From an uncultured Candidatus Saccharibacteria bacterium (lineage in GTDB: Bacteria > Patescibacteriota > Saccharimonadia > Saccharimonadales > UBA7683), in contig CAZWBG010000001.1 of the NCBI GenBank assembly GCA_964632215.1, positions 313,336 to 377,335 on the forward strand: a stretch of 64,000 nucleotides of DNA, written 5' to 3'. A program made the translations under genes and the position numbers. Below the pieces are notes generated by a model. The model was given only the letters and a program-made list of their open reading frames with translations. It made no database searches and had not been told where the DNA came from. Position 1 is the stretch's first letter; the number at the start of each line of letters is the position of its first letter. Below, in pieces: positions 19,773 to 29,411 of this stretch.

Positions 19773-20282
19773 CTATTTCTTTGATTCTTTTTCTTCAGCT
19801 TCAGGCTTCTCTTCTGAAACTTCTTCTGTCTCTGGCTTAACTTCTGCCTCAGGAGCAACAACCTCTGCCGCAGGAGATTCGGCTACTTTAGCTGGAGTTT
19901 CTTCAACCACAACTTCTGTCACAACCTCAGCTGGAGTCTCGGCAACCTCTTCAACTACCTCTTCCTTGGGAATGTTTCGTCGAAGTTTTTCAGCATGCTT
20001 GATAGTCTTAGTCTTATCGGTTGCAGTCTTCTTAACCCAACCTGGTAGAGTAACTTTTTCTGATTCAAAAACACGTACCACACGGTCAGATGGTTGAGCG
20101 CCATGTGTTAGGTAATATTCAGCTTTTTCTTTATCAAGTGTGACTGCTTTAGTGTGCGGATCAAAACTACCTAAATTAGCTACTACACGGCCGCTGGTAG
20201 GCTGACGGTGAGATTCTTGTACGATTACTCGATATTGGGCGAGACCTTTACGGCCAACTCTTTGCATACGAATTGCTAACAT
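19773..20282 (-). CDS. rpsP: 30S ribosomal protein S16 (bS16) with an acidic C-terminal extension
   Basis: Begins MLAIRMQRVGRKGLAQYRVIV. Confidence 0.9.
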   Translation of the reverse strand: MLAIRMQRVGRKGLAQYRVIVQESHRQPTSGRVVANLGSFDPHTKAVTLDKEKAEYYLTHGAQPSDRVVRVFESEKVTLPGWVKKTATDKTKTIKHAEKLRRNIPKEEVVEEVAETPAEVVTEVVVEETPAKVAESPAAEVVAPEAEVKPETEEVSEEKPEAEEKESKK

Positions 20283-20334
20283 CTAAAAATTACTTCCCTT
20301 CGACAATATGAATTTAATAAAACAATCTTGAGTA

Positions 20335-20363
20335 ATTATACAGATGATGACCCCTAAAGTCAA
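20335..20363 (-). promoter_or_regulatory. sigma70 promoter TTGACT-17-TATAAT for rpsP
   Basis: Read on the minus strand. It starts 17 nt downstream of hammerhead 3. Confidence 0.6.
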
Positions 20364-20380
20364 CTGAGGTACACTACTTT

Positions 20381-20435
20381 GTCACTTTTCGCGTTTTTAC
20401 GCTCGTCAGAGTAACCGCACAGTTACTGAAGTGAC
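20381..20435 (-). ncRNA. type III hammerhead ribozyme, copy 3
   Basis: Minus strand: GUCACUU C AGUAACU-GUGC-GGUUACU CUGACGA GCGU-AAAA-ACGC GAA AAGUGAC. The core is intact (N7 = C is allowed). All three stems carry compensatory changes relative to copies 1 and 2. Cleavage falls after the C complementary to 20428. Confidence 0.8.
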
Positions 20436-20437
20436 AC

Positions 20438-20524
20438 GGGTTAGCGGAGAAAAAGATAATAGGGAGAGTCAGTATGAGCTGACATCGAATCCATATTATA
20501 GAACTTTTTCTACGACGCTACCCC
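20438..20524 (-). other. long imperfect GGG...CCC hairpin preceding hammerhead 3
   Basis: GGGGUAGCG pairs with CGCUAACCC, AGAAAAAG with CUUUUUCU, and AUAAUA with UAUUAU. CCUGG lies just upstream. Confidence 0.5.
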
Positions 20525-20587
20525 ATGACCTGGAATCTCCAGGGTTTTACTCGAGTTTAACGCTTCGAGCACGCGTAACGCCCTTAT

Positions 20588-20941
20588 CTAGGAGACTGTC
20601 TTGCTGTTGAGAATGATCTCTCGGACGACACCAGTTCTCCCATTGTTGATAAAAATGATACCGCCCACTCGGAATATCCGAGAGATAACGTTATGTTTAG
20701 GATATCGAGTGACAACACCATGTATGTCAGTGTCCGTCTGAATGGCAACACCGTTGATATTATCCCGAGCAATTTTCGGCTCCTTCACCGTGATGAAGTG
20801 CCAAGTTGAATTTTCCGTACACACGGTGACAACGTCACCGGGGTCAGTACTAGCGAAATCGAGTTCGACTTGACGTATACCATCTCGAACACGATTGTCC
20901 GAGAACCTTGCTACTCCGGATATCCCGCTATGTTCATCCAT
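20588..20941 (-). CDS. small hypothetical protein, cassette C
   Basis: 117 aa with GGAGAT as RBS. Only weak C-terminal resemblance to cassettes A and B. Confidence 0.55.
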   Translation of the reverse strand: MDEHSGISGVARFSDNRVRDGIRQVELDFASTDPGDVVTVCTENSTWHFITVKEPKIARDNINGVAIQTDTDIHGVVTRYPKHNVISRIFRVGGIIFINNGRTGVVREIILNSKTVS

Positions 20942-21019
20942 TGGATCTCCTGTCCAATAGTTATCTGTCAGCGTTTCTAACAGATATAAACATTCGCCGA
21001 ATGCGAATGTTCAATATAA

Positions 21020-21048
21020 ATAATACAATTTAAGTGTTATTGGGTCAA
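21020..21048 (-). promoter_or_regulatory. sigma70 promoter TTGACC-17-TATTAT (cassette C)
   Basis: Lies immediately after the rnc stop. Followed by a leader hairpin AACAUUCGC/GCGAAUGUU (20989-21011). Confidence 0.55.
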
Positions 21049-21049
21049 T

Positions 21050-21754
21050 TTATTTGGATTCGTAAAATTCAAGGGCTTCTTCGGCGGCTTTTTGTTGGGC
21101 AGCTTGTTTGCTGCTACCAGATCCTGAGCCTCGAAGCTGTGAGCCAATAAACACGCCAAGTGTAAAGATTTTGTCGTGATCAGGCCCGTCTTCAGAGAGC
21201 ACTTTGTACTGAGGCGTTTGATTGTCTTTCTCCTGCGCTACCTCTTGTAAGTAGCTCTTTGGGTCACGCCACGAGCCAGTTTCTAGAATTTGTGGCAAAG
21301 TAGCAATAATTTGAGCATCTATAAACAACTTGGCGTGGTCATAGCCTTTGTCTAGGTAAATAGCACCAACGACAGCCTCAAAACTATTGGCTAAAATCTG
21401 CTGACGGGCTCGATCGGTACCGCGTTTCTCTCCGCGGCTTAAACGGAGCATACTCTCGAAGTTCAATCTGGTAGCTGCCGCACCAATGCTCTCAGTTCGC
21501 ACTAAAGCACTGCGCCAGTTAGTTAAAATTCCCTCTGGCTCGGTGTAGGTTTTATACAAAAATTCGGTTACTACCAACTCCAGCACAGCATCACCAAGAA
21601 ACTCGAGACGCTCATTGTGTTCTTGAGCTGACTTTTTGTGTTCGTTAATGTAGCTACGATGCGTAAAAGCCTGCATTAACAGAGCGGGGTCTTCGAAGGT
21701 AAAGCCAAAATTGGCCTGGGCAAAGTCTTGGTAAGGTTGCGTATTAAGGTTCAT
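21050..21754 (-). CDS. rnc: ribonuclease III
   Basis: Contains NERLEFLGDAVLELV (the RNase III signature) and a C-terminal dsRBD. Confidence 0.9.
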   Translation of the reverse strand: MNLNTQPYQDFAQANFGFTFEDPALLMQAFTHRSYINEHKKSAQEHNERLEFLGDAVLELVVTEFLYKTYTEPEGILTNWRSALVRTESIGAAATRLNFESMLRLSRGEKRGTDRARQQILANSFEAVVGAIYLDKGYDHAKLFIDAQIIATLPQILETGSWRDPKSYLQEVAQEKDNQTPQYKVLSEDGPDHDKIFTLGVFIGSQLRGSGSGSSKQAAQQKAAEEALEFYESK

Positions 21755-21829
21755 GGTGTGTAGGTTTTTGGTTATCGACTATGGAACTCTTGCAACTTCA
21801 ATACTCGATAACCGAAAATCTCTCCTTTC

Positions 21830-22324
21830 TTATAGTTTATCCTGTCTAATTTGTTTCATGGCAAGTAACATTAACTTTTCAATACCTTCGTATTCAATCT
21901 TATCAAGCGCTTCATTAAACTTAAACCAGCTGATGCCATTCATCCATTCTTCTTTCACTAAATGGTCACTATCACCCAGGGCCTTCACTAAGAAAACGTG
22001 CATAGTCATGAGAATTAAGCTATTTTGGCGGCGGTAACGGAATTGAGTTTTACCTAAGTGGTTTAGGACTTTCATCTCCTGAAGTCCCGTTTCTTCATTA
22101 ATCTCACGCTCAGCAGTTTGCCGAGGAGTCTCACCAGGCTCAATATGACCTTTAGGAATAGTCCAGCGGTCTTTAGCATCTTGAGCAAGTAGGATTTCTA
22201 CGCCACCCTTGTCGTCGCGCCTAAATACCACACCACCGGCAGTCGTCTCGCGAACTACCTCTTGAATAGCAGGTTTGCGCTTGAAATACTTTTTAAATTT
22301 ATTGAATGGTTCTGGTGTTTTCAT
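21830..22324 (-). CDS. NUDIX hydrolase
   Basis: Nudix box GHIEPGETPRQTAEREINEETG. Confidence 0.8.
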   Translation of the reverse strand: MKTPEPFNKFKKYFKRKPAIQEVVRETTAGGVVFRRDDKGGVEILLAQDAKDRWTIPKGHIEPGETPRQTAEREINEETGLQEMKVLNHLGKTQFRYRRQNSLILMTMHVFLVKALGDSDHLVKEEWMNGISWFKFNEALDKIEYEGIEKLMLLAMKQIRQDKL

Positions 22325-22833
22325 ATTGTTCCACCTTTCTTCTCTTCTGCTAGAATTGCAGGCTCAGCCTCTTTGGCTGGTTTTTTAGATCTCTCACCTT
22401 CATCAGGATGATCTTTTCGCCAGGCAGTACCGAGTACGCCGTTGATAAACTTACTCGAATTCTCAGCTCCAAAGCCCTTGGCAAGCTCAACCGCTTCATT
22501 AATAGTTACCTTGGGCGGAATATCACTCTTTTTAATGTCAAATAGTTCATAGAAGGACAGTCGCAAAATAGCGTGGTCAATTCGTGAAACCTGGGTCAAT
22601 GGCCACTCTGGAGCGAGCGGCTGAATTCGGGCATCAAGCGTGTCTAAATTGTCTACAACTCCGCGAATCAACCCCTCTACAAAGGCGAGGTCTTCAATAG
22701 TATCTTTATAGCGTCCCAGATGACGCTCTATTAGCTCGTCAATATCTGGTATATCACCAGAACGGACACGAAAATCGTATTCGTAAATAGTCTGCAGGGC
22801 AACAATACGGCCCAAATGTCTATTAGAAGCCAT
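22321..22833 (-). CDS. nusB: transcription antitermination factor NusB
   Basis: Contains RIVALQTIYEYDF...INEAVELAKGFG...FINGVL. Confidence 0.85.
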   Translation of the reverse strand: MASNRHLGRIVALQTIYEYDFRVRSGDIPDIDELIERHLGRYKDTIEDLAFVEGLIRGVVDNLDTLDARIQPLAPEWPLTQVSRIDHAILRLSFYELFDIKKSDIPPKVTINEAVELAKGFGAENSSKFINGVLGTAWRKDHPDEGERSKKPAKEAEPAILAEEKKGGTI

Positions 22834-23236: not shown

Positions 23237-23656
23237 ATGGTAAAACCTACACATTCTACAGGATATGAATCAGTTACTACAGGTATTAAACCTGAACGGA
23301 ACCTCAAGGCAAGAGTTCTACTCACCGCACTTGGTGTCGGTGGACTCGGGCTATTCCTTGCGGCTACCGCTGGTGCTAGCCAAAATACTACACCTAAGGC
23401 TGAAGTGCCGATTTGTATAGTTCCGGTGGATGCAGGTACGCACAACTTTACGCTTGAATCTGGTATGGGTGTTAATGATCTTATACATAGCATTCGTGGC
23501 TCCGGTGCTGGCGAAGGCGACCCCTGCTGGAATGCAGCTGAGGCTATCGCTCAGGATGCACTTGATACTCAAGAAGCGATTGCTGGTCATAATCAAGCCC
23601 GTGCAGTGGGTGCAACAGTTATACTTCCTGATGTAATTGTACAAGTGGGTCGATAA
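23237..23656 (+). CDS. membrane-anchored or secreted hypothetical protein
   Basis: 139 aa with TM/signal anchor VLLTALGVGGLGLFLAATAGA. Confidence 0.5.
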   Translation: MVKPTHSTGYESVTTGIKPERNLKARVLLTALGVGGLGLFLAATAGASQNTTPKAEVPICIVPVDAGTHNFTLESGMGVNDLIHSIRGSGAGEGDPCWNAAEAIAQDALDTQEAIAGHNQARAVGATVILPDVIVQVGR

Positions 23657-23999: not shown

Positions 24000-24054
24000 A
24001 TTAGGTTAACGTCCCAATACTATTTAACGAAAGTGATTTATCTTGCCCACCGAT

Positions 24055-24495
24055 ATGCGTGCGGAACAACCGACAATTGAAGAGCAAGAACTTTGGCAAA
24101 AAGTTGACTTACAAATAAGTCCCCTTCAACGTGCGCTGCATCTACCGAGAGAAGCATGGGATAAAGCACAACCTTGGGAGCAATTTAAAGAGAAGACCTC
24201 TAAGAAATTCAAGATAGCCCTTGGAGTGTATGCGGTAGGTATTGTAGCAATTTGTGGCGTCAAAGGTACCTTTATTTGGACTGAGATGATCGAGAAGGAT
24301 AACCAACAGTCAGAGCAGAAACACGCAGATGCTCGGCGTGCTGCATGTGCTCGAGAGATCGGCAACAGATATGTCTCGATATCCTTGCCGCGTGATCCAG
24401 TACGAATCGCTTCTGATTTAGAAATCTGCGTGCAAAGTGGAAGTAGCGGGATTATAGAAACACTCAACCAAGCTTCGGAAGATAGTGGTGACTAG
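24055..24495 (+). CDS. hypothetical single-TM protein
   Basis: ORF with TM helix IALGVYAVGIVAICGV. Start could be ATG 24055 or TTG 24043. Confidence 0.45.
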   Translation: MRAEQPTIEEQELWQKVDLQISPLQRALHLPREAWDKAQPWEQFKEKTSKKFKIALGVYAVGIVAICGVKGTFIWTEMIEKDNQQSEQKHADARRAACAREIGNRYVSISLPRDPVRIASDLEICVQSGSSGIIETLNQASEDSGD

Positions 24496-24513: not shown

Positions 24514-27405
24514 TTAGACGACGAAGTTAATGATTTTTCGTGGAACGTAAATAGTCTTTTTAATCTGATTGCCTGCAAGATACGGGGCAATTTTTTCATT
24601 TTCTTGAGCAGTTTGTACGACAGATTCCTGAGTGGCATCAGCAGCGACCTCAATAGTGGCGCGTAGCTTACCGTTAACCTGCACCACTAGTTTGATGGTA
24701 TCGGTAGTCAAATCAGCCTCACTCCATTTTGGCCAGCTATCAACATGTACGCTTGAGCTGTGACCTAACTGCTGCCAAAGTTCGTCGGTAATATGCGGAG
24801 CAAACGGTGCGCTACAGGCTACAATTGCCTCGAGTGCCTGCTGCCAGACTTCGTCTTTTACGAGCGAATCCGTCTTCAGCTTATAGAGTTCATTAAGACT
24901 ACCCATAGCTGTAGCGATAGCGGTATTGTAGCGATTCTCTTCAATATCTTCAGTAATTTTTTTGACCATACGGCTTGTTAAGCGACGTAGCTCAGCTTGC
25001 GTAGTCGCATCTAGCTCATCTGCTTTGGCTTCTTGGTATTCTTGTACTAAATTCCAGAGCCGTGTTAGGAACCGAAATGCTCCTGGCACACCCTGTGGAT
25101 CCCACTTAGCACTAAATTCCAGCGGTGCTGCAAACATCAAATATGTTCTGAGCGCATCTGCTCCATAACCGCTTTCAATAATCTCCAACGGATCAATACC
25201 GTTACCTTTAGACTTAGAAAATGCACTACCATCACTGGCCATGACTTTGCCGTTGAAAAGCATCTGCCTGAACGGTTCGGGATTATCAACCAAGCCAATC
25301 TTAGTGAAGAAGCGGGCTACGAAGCGAGCATACAGCAAGTGAGCCGTGGCATGGTCGCCACCGTTGTAGAAATCGAATGGTGCCCATTTGTTGGCAAGTT
25401 CAGTTTCAAAGATCTTCTCCTGATTGTGCGGGTCGAGGTAGCGGTACATATACCAACTACTACAGATGTAGGTATCAAGCGTATCAGTCTCTCGCTCGGC
25501 TACCCCACCGCACTCTGGGCAATCTACTACAAGCCAATCTTTGGCTCTGGCTAGAGCACTGCGTCCATCGCCACTTGGCTGAAAGTCGGTCAACTCAGGT
25601 AGAACCACAGGCAGATCGGTATCTGGAATTAATACCGGCCCGCATTTTTCACAGTTAACGATTGGAATCGGTGCACCCCAGTACCTTTGACGGCTAATGC
25701 TCCAATCTCGCATTTTGTAATTCACTTTTTCCTGAGCAATTCCCTGTTTTACGAGATCTGCAACAATTGTCTCACGAGCCGCAGCAGATGAGACACCACT
25801 GTACTGTCCAGAATCAATAAGCAGACCATCACCTGAAAATGTTACCCCGCCAGTATTTAACCACTGCAAGATGTAAGGAAGTTCAGCTACTGGCCTAAGC
25901 GTCGGTAGTACATCAGCCCCAACCCATTGTGATTCAAAATCTTCATGAGCTTCGCGTTTTGTATCAACCTGCTCCAAGCTACCTAGCTCAAACAATAACA
26001 CCTGGGTGTAAATGTCTCTGTTGACGTCTTTGTGCTTTGCATAGAACTTGCTATTCATCTTGAGCGGTAGAGTGTCTATAAATTTTAGATCAGTATAGCC
26101 CGTTTCTTCTTCAATCTCTCGGCGAGCCGCAGCTACAACATCTTCGCCATCTTCAATACCCCCCATCACAAAGTTGTGCCAGTCAAATTTATTCCATTTA
26201 AGGGTAAGATACGTGCCGTCCGATGGATGCTTAATCAAACACATCACTACATTCCTGGTTGTATCTTTCTTGCCGATTTGAGGTGGATTTTCTTGGTCAA
26301 ATAACTCGGGTGCAACCACTTGCTTTATTGGCAGATCGAACTTCTTGGCAAATTCGTTATCACGTTCGTCGTGAGCTGGAACGGCCATGATGGCGCCAGT
26401 TCCGTAACCAGTTAGTACGTAGTCTGCAATCCAAACTGGAACCTCTTCGTTATTGACCGGATTGATGACATAGCTACCGGTGAAGACACCAGTTTTCTCT
26501 TTGTTCTCTTGGCGCTCTACTTCACTTTTTAACTGAGCTTGCTTAACGTACTCTTCTATTCCTGTCTTTTGCTCGGTTGTAGTGAGTTTTTCTACCAAGT
26601 GATGTTCGGGTGCAAGTACCAAGAAAGTGGCACCAAAGAGAGTATCTGGCCGAGTGGTGAAAACAGTTATGTTCTGAGTACTGTCTTTAATCTTAAAATC
26701 GACTTCGGCACCGATGCTGCGGCCGATCCAGTTCTTCTGGGCAAGCTTGACGCTTTCTGTCCAATTAAGATCGTCTATCGCCTCAAGTAGTTCATCGGCA
26801 TACTCAGTGATCTTAAAGAACCACTGTTTGACTTCTTTCTTCTCAACTAATGGATCATCCGGACCGTCGTGACGCCAACACTTGCCTTCAATAATCTGCT
26901 CATTCGCAAGCACCGTTTGACACTTGGTGCACCACCACTGCATACGGGCATCTTGATAAGCAAGATCATTGCGATACATCTCGCTAAAAATCCACTGTGT
27001 CCATTTATAGTATTCGGGCACAGAAGTTATGATTTCTTTCTCCCAGTCGTTGCTCCAACCCATCGCTTTGTACTGTTTATGATAGCTCGGGATAATAGTT
27101 GCCATACTCTCCTGCGGCGAGACACCAGCTTTAATAGCGTAGTTCTCGGCAGGTAAACCAAAAGAATCCCAGCCGATAGGGTGATAACTTTCGTAACCTT
27201 GCTGACGCTTAAAGCGAGCTTTTACATCGCTGATGGTGTAGTTCATAGCGTGACCAATATGAATACCAGCACCACTCGGATAGTTAAACATGCTCAGAGC
27301 CATATATTTTGGCTTATCGCTTTTTAAGTTGGCAGTGTAGACATTTGTCTCACTCCAAATAGCTTGCCATTTCGGTTCAATCTCTTTTGGGTTATATCGT
27401 CGCAT
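24514..27405 (-). CDS. leuS: leucine--tRNA ligase carrying an inserted Nudix domain
   Basis: HIGH motif (GIHIGHAMNY), CP1 editing motif TRPDTLFGATF, KMSKS-like FSKSKGN. Residues about 383-517 contain a complete Nudix box. Confidence 0.9.
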   Translation of the reverse strand: MRRYNPKEIEPKWQAIWSETNVYTANLKSDKPKYMALSMFNYPSGAGIHIGHAMNYTISDVKARFKRQQGYESYHPIGWDSFGLPAENYAIKAGVSPQESMATIIPSYHKQYKAMGWSNDWEKEIITSVPEYYKWTQWIFSEMYRNDLAYQDARMQWWCTKCQTVLANEQIIEGKCWRHDGPDDPLVEKKEVKQWFFKITEYADELLEAIDDLNWTESVKLAQKNWIGRSIGAEVDFKIKDSTQNITVFTTRPDTLFGATFLVLAPEHHLVEKLTTTEQKTGIEEYVKQAQLKSEVERQENKEKTGVFTGSYVINPVNNEEVPVWIADYVLTGYGTGAIMAVPAHDERDNEFAKKFDLPIKQVVAPELFDQENPPQIGKKDTTRNVVMCLIKHPSDGTYLTLKWNKFDWHNFVMGGIEDGEDVVAAARREIEEETGYTDLKFIDTLPLKMNSKFYAKHKDVNRDIYTQVLLFELGSLEQVDTKREAHEDFESQWVGADVLPTLRPVAELPYILQWLNTGGVTFSGDGLLIDSGQYSGVSSAAARETIVADLVKQGIAQEKVNYKMRDWSISRQRYWGAPIPIVNCEKCGPVLIPDTDLPVVLPELTDFQPSGDGRSALARAKDWLVVDCPECGGVAERETDTLDTYICSSWYMYRYLDPHNQEKIFETELANKWAPFDFYNGGDHATAHLLYARFVARFFTKIGLVDNPEPFRQMLFNGKVMASDGSAFSKSKGNGIDPLEIIESGYGADALRTYLMFAAPLEFSAKWDPQGVPGAFRFLTRLWNLVQEYQEAKADELDATTQAELRRLTSRMVKKITEDIEENRYNTAIATAMGSLNELYKLKTDSLVKDEVWQQALEAIVACSAPFAPHITDELWQQLGHSSSVHVDSWPKWSEADLTTDTIKLVVQVNGKLRATIEVAADATQESVVQTAQENEKIAPYLAGNQIKKTIYVPRKIINFVV

Positions 27406-27447: not shown

Positions 27448-28152
27448 CTATTCCAATTCGGTAATAACAGCTACGTTTGCAGCCTTTGCTAAAGCTCGTT
27501 GCCTACGAATTTTGCGACGTTCACGCTCACTCATACCACCCCAAATGCCAAACTTCTCACTATTACTAAGCGCATACTCCAGGCACTCTTCACGAACAAT
27601 ACAGCCCCTACAAACTTCTTTCGCTTCACGAGTACTTGCTCCTCTTTCGGGAAAGAAAAGAATAGGGTCAACTCCTAAGCAGTTTGAGTAGTCCTGCCAT
27701 ACCTTCTCATCCTCTTCTGATTTATTTGATTCTACGGTCGCAAAGGTCTTTGAGGTCTTTGAGAGCTTTGACTGTTTTTGCTTTGATGGCTTAGGCTCAT
27801 TAATCTCTGTCTGAAATTGTGGTACAGCGCCGGAACCGTAGAAATAATGACTCAATGAACCAACTGCGGCCTGTGTGTGCTCATTGGTTAAGTATTTTTC
27901 ATCATTCATGGCTTTTTGTAGAGCACGCTTTACACTTGCATTTGTTATCTGAGTTTTTGGATCGTCCTCAGGCGCGACTTCCAAAAAGGCCATGCACTCC
28001 GCAAGAACATGGATACTCTCCGGATCGTCAGCCCTAAGCAAGGCATCTGTAATTTGCCTCACGACCGCTAAGTCAGTAGTCGCCGATCTATGCTCTGCCT
28101 CCAAAGTAGTCGTTTCTCCATAGTTGATGCCATAAAGTATTTCTTTTGCCAT
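27448..28152 (-). CDS. WhiB-like (Wbl) Fe-S transcription factor with a 150-aa N-terminal extension
   Basis: C-terminal C-x25-C-x2-C-x5-C followed by GIWGG and the basic tail RRKIRRQR. Confidence 0.7.
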   Translation of the reverse strand: MAKEILYGINYGETTTLEAEHRSATTDLAVVRQITDALLRADDPESIHVLAECMAFLEVAPEDDPKTQITNASVKRALQKAMNDEKYLTNEHTQAAVGSLSHYFYGSGAVPQFQTEINEPKPSKQKQSKLSKTSKTFATVESNKSEEDEKVWQDYSNCLGVDPILFFPERGASTREAKEVCRGCIVREECLEYALSNSEKFGIWGGMSERERRKIRRQRALAKAANVAVITELE

Positions 28153-28241: not shown

Positions 28242-29411
28242 ATGCCTCGACTTAAAAATGTTAAACTACGTGTAATGAAGCTACTGAGTAAAAGACAATT
28301 TACTGTCATGAACCGTGTAGAACTTTCCCGCGATGCGCTCCTGCATAATTTACGTCTGCTTACCAAAATAAGTGACGACAAAAGCTGCATACCCGTTCTT
28401 AAGGCCAATGCCTATGGACACGGGCTCGTAGAAGTCGTAAGAATACTTGCTAATTCAGGTGCAAAGCTCGTAGCAGTAGACGGCTACCACGAAGCGCTCA
28501 CCGTGCGTAAAACAAACACCCGACAGAGAATTTTGGTTATGGGAGCCATTGACCCTGCTAATTTTGCACAGCTACGCACTGAGCAAACTTCTTTCGTGGC
28601 ACACGATTTTGACTCGCTAGCAGGCTGGGCCGCAACCAGGCGAAAGGTTAATTTGCATTTAGAATTTAATACTGGCATGAATCGACAAGGTTTTAACGAA
28701 TCAGATTTACCACATATTATAGAGCTCATACATCAACATCCCCAGCTCAAAGTAGAGGGAATCATGAGCCACTTGGCTGATGCCGATAACGCTACGAGTG
28801 AAAGCTTTACTACGAAGCAGGCGCAACAATTTGATGCAATCGTGAAGATTTGTCTTGAGAACGGACTTACGCCCAAGTACATACACCTAGGCCAAAGTGC
28901 TGGGCTCACAAAAGTACATTCTTGTTATGCTAATGCTATCCGGCCAGGTATTGCCCTATATGGCATTAACCCACTCAGCAAGAATGATAAAAAATTTGAG
29001 AAACTTGAGCAGACGAAGCCAGTCCTAAGACTTATTAGTCGCGTTGGAGAAATACGCGAATTATCTGTTGGTGAAGGCATCAGCTACAACATCACCTACA
29101 AGGCAAGTCAGCCAACAAAGATTGCAGTTATTCCCCTAGGCTACTACGAAGCTCTTCCACGCACACTCAGTAATAAAGCAAAACTCTCCGTGAAAGGCGT
29201 ACCCTGCCCAATACTCGGTAGAGTTTGCATGAACCACACCATGATTGACGTAACAGGTCTTGAGGTTTCCGTTGGAGACGAAGTAGAAGTCATCAGTGAT
29301 CAGCGCAAGCAGCCCAATAGTCTACAGTCCCTGGCCGACCAAACTGGCCTACTCAACTATGAATTTATGGTACACATAAACTCCAGCATCCGCCGGGTTA
29401 TTATAGATTAG
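28242..29411 (+). CDS. alr: alanine racemase
   Basis: PLP site VLKANAYGHG and typical C-terminal barrel motifs. Confidence 0.85.
   Translation: MPRLKNVKLRVMKLLSKRQFTVMNRVELSRDALLHNLRLLTKISDDKSCIPVLKANAYGHGLVEVVRILANSGAKLVAVDGYHEALTVRKTNTRQRILVMGAIDPANFAQLRTEQTSFVAHDFDSLAGWAATRRKVNLHLEFNTGMNRQGFNESDLPHIIELIHQHPQLKVEGIMSHLADADNATSESFTTKQAQQFDAIVKICLENGLTPKYIHLGQSAGLTKVHSCYANAIRPGIALYGINPLSKNDKKFEKLEQTKPVLRLISRVGEIRELSVGEGISYNITYKASQPTKIAVIPLGYYEALPRTLSNKAKLSVKGVPCPILGRVCMNHTMIDVTGLEVSVGDEVEVISDQRKQPNSLQSLADQTGLLNYEFMVHINSSIRRVIID

Follow-up and report, generated by a model that had tools for sequence, protein, structure and literature searches.

A 64,000-nucleotide stretch of DNA from an uncultured Candidatus Saccharibacteria bacterium (contig CAZWBG010000001.1, positions 313,336 to 377,335 of the forward strand; hereafter the window) encodes a bacterial-type leucyl-tRNA synthetase (LeuRS; gene leuS) with a complete Nudix hydrolase domain nested in its CP1 editing domain. 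The nesting is real and far beyond chance, and we regard this architectural part of our explanation as virtually certain. The same Nudix subfamily is tied to aminoacyl-tRNA synthetases (aaRSs) in the Candidate Phyla Radiation (CPR), in DPANN and in some low-GC gut lineages, where it is either nested in the synthetase, mostly LeuRS and rarely ProRS, or encoded by an adjacent gene. As to function, our leading though tentative proposal is that of an active Nudix pyrophosphohydrolase in a working LeuRS, which would cleave nucleotides linked to aaRS chemistry, with dinucleoside polyphosphates (Ap(n)N) as the best candidates.

The host protein of 963 residues scores 952 bits on the TIGR00396 leuS_bact profile (cut-off 548.4), and phmmer aligns it to Thermus thermophilus LeuRS with an E-value of 3.5e-230. 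A Foldseek search with the full-length model matched LeuRS structures only, at template modelling (TM) scores of 0.82-0.85, and a model of the inserted domain alone was therefore made. The host gene and its signature motifs, read from the translation, are as follows.

24514..27405 (stop codon included), minus strand: leuS, bacterial-type LeuRS, 963 residues (open reading frame, TIGR00396, phmmer, Foldseek)
27250..27261, minus strand: HIGH signature, residues 49-52 (H49, G51 and H52 invariant in 106 sequences)
26641..26658, minus strand: T-rich editing motif TTRPDT, residues 250-255 (T251, R252, D254 and T255 invariant; role described in PMC3747510)
26359..26373, minus strand: editing-site HDERD with conserved Asp residues, residues 345-349 (H345, D346, R348 and D349 invariant)
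25207..25221, minus strand: KMSKS-type loop FSKSK, residues 729-733 (invariant in 106 relatives)

The GTG loop of CP1 (residues 335-337) is, like the other LeuRS motifs, invariant in the 106 relatives, and both the synthetic and the editing motifs of the host are intact. A leucine-specific domain before KMSKS is typical of bacterial LeuRS, although not universal. Here it is absent before FSKSK: residues 723 to 727 align across T. thermophilus 579 to 636 (phmmer), with ~3 residues in place of T. thermophilus 580-635 (window 25207-25240, residues 723-733). The domain is also missing from the aligned Saccharibacteria relatives, and Mycoplasma mobile LeuRS has been described as likewise lacking it (PMC3643597).

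In the alignment to T. thermophilus LeuRS, residues 1-365 correspond to T. thermophilus 1-363 and residues 524-723 to 378-579, so that ~158 residues stand in for a loop of 14 residues. The same loop has ~18 residues in E. coli, ~15 in N. gonorrhoeae and ~12 in insert-less Saccharibacteria. The interrupted editing domain and its insert are laid out as follows.

26311..26736, minus strand: CP1 editing domain, N-terminal part, residues 224-365 (PF13603 matches residues 224-370 with profile positions 1-146 of 185)
25837..26310, minus strand: whole insert relative to T. thermophilus LeuRS, residues 366-523, in place of T. thermophilus 364-377, the I4b loop (alignment, insert-less relatives, I4b topology)
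25852..26268, minus strand: Nudix fold core, residues 380-518 (AlphaFold2 models, PF00293, Foldseek)
25711..25836, minus strand: CP1 editing domain, C-terminal part, residues 524-565, including helix alpha3 (alignment to T. thermophilus 378 onwards)

In homologues, PF13603 positions ~150-185 come after the Nudix domain. The modelled order of CP1 elements is beta1-beta2-alpha1-beta3-[three helices]-beta4-beta5-beta6-alpha2-[insert]-alpha3-beta7. In Streptococcus pneumoniae LeuRS the variable I4b insertion is the loop between alpha2 and alpha3 (PMC3747510), and since the modelled order matches this published topology we place the Nudix domain in I4b. Thr373 of the S. pneumoniae I4b lies ~4 Å from a ligand in the editing pocket, whose mouth the loop borders, and I4ae, the archaeal and eukaryotic counterpart of I4b, caps that pocket (PMC3747510). 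Judged by its position in the sequence, the Nudix domain itself would lie at the rim of the editing site.

The fold of the insert was assessed by profile, by structure prediction and by structural comparison. Pfam PF00293 matches residues 387-504 with 46.3 bits (gathering cut-off 21.1, E 5.6e-12), and the excised segment alone reaches 50.7 bits against the same cut-off. AlphaFold2 modelled residues 376-524 alone with a mean predicted local distance difference test (pLDDT) of 95.1 and with strands and helices in the order expected for Nudix; the whole protein, modelled from a 106-sequence alignment, has a mean pLDDT of 90.2, with values of 88-97 over the insert and its linkers. The core comprises strands at 380-392, 399-404, 409-416, 440-456, 461-474 and 490-495 and helices at 423-435, 497-502 and 509-518, the first of which bears the REx2EE motif. 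Foldseek matched the domain model at probability 1.00 to more than 500 solved Nudix chains, with TM scores up to 0.74. The insert is an alpha/beta/alpha sandwich with the Nudix box on a loop-helix-loop, the arrangement that defines a Nudix domain. A preliminary description of this sequence had proposed a complete, catalytic-looking Nudix domain at residues 383-517 of a 963-residue LeuRS, which on translation correspond exactly to 25855-26259. The Pfam score, the AlphaFold2 model and Foldseek bear that proposal out, and the match of the Nudix box holds under profile scoring. Two details of the description need correction: the insert had been placed after CP1, whereas it lies inside it, with PF13603 positions on either side, and the equivalent E. 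coli linker had been put at ~30 residues where the alignment gives ~18.

The catalytic signature and the further positions conserved in the subfamily are the following.

26095..26163, minus strand: Nudix box GGIEDGEDVVAAARREIEEETGY, residues 415-437, with E430, E433 and E434 (translation, conservation)
26017..26031, minus strand: subfamily-conserved KDVNR, residues 459-463 (K459 in 86/92, N462 in 77/92; homologue alignment)
25924..25944, minus strand: subfamily-conserved E488 (86/92) to W494 (92/92) (homologue alignment)

The box fits the consensus GX5EX7REUXEEXGU, as had been noted before; its last U position is a Tyr here, as it is in 64 of 92 homologues. Within these 92 close insert-bearing homologues, G415 is conserved in 91, R429 in 81, E430 in 91, E433 in 92, E434 in 92 and G436 in 91, and W409, outside the box, in 85. 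Across the wider set of LeuRS-embedded copies the Glu triad is retained in 279 of 282, ~45 of which had been chosen by a pattern containing two of the glutamates. This conservation of catalytic residues across hundreds of homologues, a further point in favour of the catalytic-looking domain first described, is set in a divergent sequence: mean identity to the window protein is 35% for the insert and 72% for the LeuRS body. Retention of the triad despite such divergence is as expected for a metal-dependent active site and argues against a purely structural role. We consider it very probable that the domain is catalytically active; E430, E433 and E434 would then hold Mg2+ or Mn2+.

The same data bear on a non-catalytic role, in which the domain would cap the editing pocket as I4ae does, offer a tRNA-binding surface that replaces the leucine-specific domain, or act as a nucleotide-sensing regulator. 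Such roles would suit I4b, the bacterial counterpart of the I4ae site that caps the pocket, in an enzyme without a leucine-specific domain; both linkers are modelled with high pLDDT, suggesting that the domain is packed firmly against CP1, and E421 and R429 of the box are lost in some insert types. However, the Glu triad persists in nearly all embedded copies against ~65% divergence elsewhere, close relatives persist with neither the insert nor the leucine-specific domain, and free-standing homologues of the Nudix domain exist. We therefore find a non-catalytic role highly improbable.

The architecture is widespread. PF00293 is found in ~100 of the 120 closest LeuRS sequences (63-71% identical, the named ones from Saccharibacteria/Saccharimonadales), while ~15 equally close relatives of 809-824 residues have no Nudix domain. 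The insertion is lineage-wide, the possibility that had been raised against the Nudix assignment, and it carries the Nudix fold. These relatives were collected by a full-length search; a word-indexed search with the insert alone gave 6 matches and missed the LeuRS family. Since the identical LeuRS protein is present on 4 contigs, and ~100 homologues share its architecture, the sequences indicate that it is not an assembly artefact. A recent foreign insertion was likewise rejected, the insert having no GC or GC3 (third codon position) anomaly and no flanking repeats.

When the insert was searched exhaustively with HMMER against 1.84 billion representative sequences, only 370 proteins reached E<=1e-3, and among the best 150 of these 107 are LeuRS or LeuRS fragments, which points to a dedicated subfamily rather than generic Nudix similarity. 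Species-representative genomes were scanned with a single sequence, a search biased to copies containing EIEEETGY, and Nudix-bearing LeuRS turned up in metagenome-assembled genomes labelled Saccharibacteria, Parcubacteria/Paceibacterota, Zambryski-, Nomura-, Kaiser- and Moraniibacteria, in low-GC gut genomes of the same kind labelled Bacilli/Erysipelotrichaceae/Tenericutes (labels taken as given), and in contigs labelled Woesearchaeota/archaeon. On two of the last (L007 and L009) the bacterial-type Nudix-bearing LeuRS stands beside genes of archaeal type, for a tRNA-intron endonuclease and a presenilin-type signal-peptide peptidase, which implies inter-domain transfer between CPR-like bacteria and DPANN archaea.

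Some LeuRS proteins, up to 1430 residues long, contain two or even three Nudix domains whose boxes are intact (P0018, P0020, P0031, P0061, P0035, P0036, P0039, P0048, P0087, P0127, P0128, P0143, P0160 and P0293). The sites occupied are the same loop, where copies lie in tandem, the CP1 beta1/beta2 hairpin, the region past helix alpha3, and the part of the catalytic body close to the CxxC knuckle. The same Nudix is found in a second synthetase, in a small DPANN ProRS clade (P0266 and P0295-P0298, 641-674 residues, of Nanoarchaeota/Woesearchaeota type), between the anticodon-binding and C-terminal domains. Other hydrolase families, too, occupy various surface loops of related enzymes, often alongside Nudix: ASCH (P0088, P0066, P0038), the serine hydrolase PF06821 (L007:2396-5995, P0238, P0230), HAD_2 (P0139) and Ham1p_like, that is Ham1/ITPase (P0145, 197 bits), in LeuRS, and His_Phos_1 in an IleRS (L075:6386-9886). 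Because LeuRS and IleRS relatives host several hydrolase families, the class I synthetases of CPR and DPANN lineages look like scaffolds for nucleotide- or ester-hydrolysing modules, of which Nudix is by far the commonest. A protein of 277 residues (P0004; L072:4127-4960, also on L073 and L074) combines a degenerate CP1 fragment with a Nudix domain and the final ~35 residues of CP1; it adjoins DegV and ECF-sigma genes and resembles an excised copy of the CP1-Nudix module.

Free-standing homologues of 154-200 residues were inspected in their contigs, in 11 contexts, which are listed here with the neighbouring genes.

P0137: ends 2 bp ahead of a LeuRS that carries its own Nudix
P0166: ends 3 bp ahead of an insert-less LeuRS
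P0281: starts 13 bp past ArgRS; the locus also has the IleRS with His_Phos_1, then another Nudix gene
P0277: upstream of ThrRS and MiaA
P0218: 15 bp behind ProRS, an unfused ProRS-Nudix pair (L086)
Copy on L015: abuts a class I Val/Ile-like aaRS
Copy on L047: one gene away from AspRS
Copy on L026: abuts Sua5/TsaC
Three further free-standing homologues: no aaRS close by

An aaRS gene is directly adjacent in 6 of the 11 contexts, against ~6% per gene expected by chance if ~3% of genes are taken to encode aaRSs; the association is strong, in a small sample. Fusion in some genomes and adjacency in others together indicate a functional partnership.

These observations also bear on whether the domain might be an autonomous passenger, a general house-cleaning pyrophosphatase for non-canonical nucleoside triphosphates (NTPs) or NDP-X compounds that is uncoupled from its host, the LeuRS loops being permissive landing pads in streamlined genomes. 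The range of enzymes hosted by LeuRS and IleRS fits this picture, as do the LeuRS proteins with up to three Nudix copies, the dispensable and exchangeable nature of the insert, the NudI-type NTPases among its top fold matches and the three homologues with no aaRS nearby. A passenger, however, does not predict a subfamily that lies overwhelmingly in or beside aaRS genes of both classes, least of all the unfused pairs, and the presence of the domain, in frame and within one and the same loop, across hundreds of lineages suggests selection for proximity. We therefore rate an uncoupled passenger as rather unlikely.

Comparison of the insert with its host revealed that the two do not evolve as one. 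Over 4186 pairs of insert-bearing LeuRS, body identity and insert identity are uncorrelated (Spearman -0.06). In three pairs, compared as proteins, bodies 91-95% identical carry inserts that are only 26-32% identical; in 30-residue windows the identity is 90-100% to about residue 360, 17-40% over the insert and part of alpha3, and 90-100% again thereafter. The crossover breakpoints fall in the strongly conserved flanks, AVPAHDERD... on one side and ...KVNYKMRDWSVSRQRYWG on the other. Single-linkage clustering at 45% gave ~16 insert types, each of which occurs in LeuRS bodies that share 61-91% identity, and of the 16 tight body clusters 7 combine different insert types or include members with and without the insert; the insert-less P0090, for example, shares 88% body identity with the insert-bearing P0016. 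As the insert is swapped, and sometimes absent, among near-identical LeuRS proteins, it behaves as an accessory module exchanged by recombination. The sequences thus indicate that Nudix alleles recombine through the conserved flanks and that LeuRS works without the insert. Assembly chimeras were judged an unlikely source of the mosaic pairs, each of which would need two crossovers, at least three independent pairs from different samples being involved. In one pair (P0056 and P0059) the LeuRS proteins are ~90% identical over most of their length and 40-60% identical in the C-terminal ~180 residues, which points to frequent recombination within leuS.

Mosaicism of this kind could reflect a conflict or immunity module, one that detoxifies a nucleotide-type toxin or a toxin-made modification of tRNA or aaRS, with an arms race driving the turnover; adenylate-mimic antibiotics, pyrophosphorylated or ADP-ribosylated tRNA ends and toxic alarmones would be conceivable targets. 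The uncorrelated identities, the sharp mosaic boundaries, the many insert types and the presence or absence of the insert among close relatives would all follow, and the carriers are, by their taxonomic labels, episymbionts on other microbes. General recombination may nevertheless explain the pattern, leuS being mosaic elsewhere too; the insert has no match to a known defence family past generic Nudix similarity (PADLOC, 17 bits), no close viral relatives, and no toxin partner was identified. A known defence system or a phage origin of the insert was rejected on the same grounds, the matches being generic to Nudix. We hold a conflict module to be very unlikely. A related idea, which seems to us quite unlikely, is that of a new kind of quality-control or immunity module for the tRNA/aaRS system: a hydrolase acting in cis at the rim of the editing pocket would clear tRNA ends of pyrophosphate-containing caps or toxin-made adducts, or break down aaRS poisons of the nucleotide type. 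Other synthetases would be served by the free-standing copies, and the swapping of alleles would reflect an arms race in episymbiotic CPR and DPANN organisms.

As to the Nudix family concerned, no curated NCBIfam family reaches its cut-off for the insert, and the shortfall is wide. The best matches are the RppH equivalogs (PRK00714), with 28.9 bits against a required 118 and 25.1 against 116, so that the RppH/NudH cut-offs are not reached; free-standing homologues score 20-28 bits on the same profiles. A profile of 37 inserts searched against the PDB matched the decapping Nudix AvrM14 (1.7e-11) and the lupin Ap4A (diadenosine tetraphosphate) hydrolase 1F3Y (2.3e-11, over 69 residues), followed further down by MutT/ADPRase/NudI proteins, CT771 and RppH. 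A single-sequence PDB search placed 1F3Y first (E 1.3e-4), at low identity and with other Nudix classes nearly as high, and Foldseek ranked E. coli RppH (TM 0.71-0.74), NudI and several Ap4A hydrolases (0.64-0.72) among the closest folds. The nearest characterised enzymes accordingly cleave 5'-5' polyphosphate-bridged nucleotides or RNA 5' ends; with identities of 16-25%, the substrate class that these relatives suggest is a lead rather than an assignment.

RppH/NudH, the Ap4A hydrolases (lupin 1F3Y, Chlamydia CT771, human NUDT2) and AvrM14 share with the insert the fold and the complete Nudix box; an aromatic residue 17-18 positions past the box may be a further likeness. In the insert Y455 lies 18 residues past the box; among the 92 homologues, 76 have Y or F at this position and 83 have F or Y at position 454. 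Dunn et al. in 1999 reportedly noted a Tyr 16-18 residues downstream of the box in Nudix-type asymmetrical Ap4A hydrolases. The insert differs from all these enzymes in its own conserved K459, N462, E488, W494 and W409 and in being nested in a synthetase rather than free-standing.

The catalytic activity, the substrate and the action in cis that make up our preferred proposal are inferred. The Nudix domain would split the pyrophosphate bond of a nucleotide compound tied to aaRS chemistry. Synthetases form dinucleoside polyphosphates (Ap4A, Ap3A, Ap4N) when ATP or another NTP attacks the enzyme-bound aminoacyl-adenylate, and their cleavage would give back ATP or ADP together with AMP near the site where the by-product arises. 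Ap4A as a substrate agrees with the solved enzymes closest to the domain and with its association with aaRS genes. Hydrolysis of the aminoacyl-adenylate itself, which the preliminary description had suggested beside Ap4A-type by-products and a regulatory role, seems no more than a remote possibility: its acyl-phosphate is not a pyrophosphate substrate of the Nudix type, and we know of no precedent for such a reaction in Nudix chemistry.

Several observations weigh against Ap(n)N cleavage. The Nudix domain sits on the editing domain, whereas Ap4A would form at the synthetic site. LeuRS is a modest producer of Ap4A, and ArgRS, which one homologue (P0281) abuts, is not known to make any. The substrate is suggested by distant similarity, and the curated families, as described above, all fall short. 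The variety of hydrolases in LeuRS and IleRS would suit landing pads and house-cleaning as well as it suits an Ap4A role. Finally, turnover as a cassette is a trait more of conflict or accessory modules than of housekeeping ones, and some close relatives have no insert at all.

The relation to RNA 5'-end enzymes also raises the possibility of a tRNA-end hydrolase, which would remove a 5'-triphosphate or an Np4- or NAD-type cap from tRNA-Leu docked at the neighbouring editing pocket. E. coli RppH and AvrM14 are among the top structural and profile relatives, and RppH is the best NCBIfam match. The insertion lies at the edge of the pocket that receives the 3' end of the tRNA, next to which, from tRNA geometry, the 5' end should lie; tRNA is the sole ligand common to all the aaRS partners, ArgRS included; and some LeuRS relatives also contain an inserted ASCH domain, which is predicted to bind RNA. 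Mature tRNAs, however, normally carry a 5'-monophosphate after RNase P, second and third Nudix copies lie at other loops, including the catalytic body, and the free-standing Nudix of a NusB-Nudix-RNase III operon elsewhere in the window is a better RppH candidate than the LeuRS insert. On balance we think a tRNA-end hydrolase unlikely.

Set beside known systems, the insert shares its site with the I4b (bacterial) and I4ae (archaeal/eukaryotic) insertions, between alpha2 and alpha3 of CP1 at the edge of the editing pocket, a position that is variable among bacteria. The known I4b and I4ae elements consist of loops or a helix, ~10-40 residues long and devoid of enzymatic motifs, whereas here the site holds an autonomous enzyme fold of 140 residues. 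A class I synthetase with a second catalytic domain is also represented by NCBIfam NF040702 ('isoleucine--tRNA ligase, N-acetyltransferase domain-containing'), and the ProRS INS/YbaK-type editing modules are another case of a bacterial aaRS with an added enzyme domain. The present case differs from both in that the added fold is Nudix, nested in the editing domain, sometimes multicopy and exchanged as a cassette. In the animal LysRS-Ap4A-NUDT2 axis the synthetase makes Ap4A and a separate Nudix protein degrades it, with a role in signalling. The pairing of aaRS and Nudix is alike, but here it takes the form of physical fusion or operon linkage in prokaryotes, and Ap4A is only a candidate substrate.

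The window contains a second Nudix gene, in a conserved cluster (19773-22833) downstream of leuS that is also present in the insert-less relatives L081 and L082.

22321-22833, minus strand: NusB
21830..22324, minus strand: free-standing Nudix gene, 164 residues, its start overlapping the NusB stop
21050-21754, minus strand: RNase III
19773-20282, minus strand: S16

This free-standing Nudix belongs to a different subfamily from the insert and is a candidate RNA pyrophosphohydrolase. It was rejected as the source of the insert, as the two are alike only in the box (30 bits over 32 residues) and match different NCBIfam profiles. Directly upstream of leuS, on the minus strand at 27448-28152, lies a protein with a WhiB-family domain (residues 152-214, 87 bits) and an N-terminal extension of ~150 residues that has no family match. 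An alanine racemase is found at 28242-29411, and this arrangement is conserved in L083. Between leuS and NusB, two open reading frames on the plus strand (23237-23656 and 24043-24495; 139 and 150 residues) have no Pfam match; at the equivalent positions L083 has called genes of 146 and 139 residues, on the strand opposite leuS.

Added aaRS domains are well known in eukaryotes, where they are mostly non-catalytic appendages. Full-text literature searches turned up no account of LeuRS, or of any aaRS from CPR or DPANN organisms, with a Nudix domain, in agreement with the preliminary description, which knew of none, though the architecture is common in sequence databases: Nudix-bearing LeuRS is abundant in public data and is caught by automatic Pfam annotation. 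In a survey of domain insertions from 2026, the LeuRS editing domain figures solely as an insert and nowhere as the host of one (PMC13114784). An apparently active second enzyme nested in the editing domain of a prokaryotic aaRS would represent a new architectural class. The finding affects annotation, as several Nudix-bearing LeuRS proteins bear no other name than 'class I tRNA ligase family protein'. It is also relevant to drug work, as benzoxaborole inhibitors of LeuRS are aimed at the I4b/editing-pocket region (PMC3747510).

In evolutionary terms the insert is an oddity, with highly divergent alleles of a domain swapped within an essential and otherwise conserved gene. Its subfamily is bound to synthetases of both classes, fused or in operons, in the least understood of the small-genome lineages. 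CPR and DPANN organisms rely on salvaged nucleotides, and the Nudix-bearing LeuRS lets one ask whether by-products such as Ap4A may be handled on the synthetase itself.

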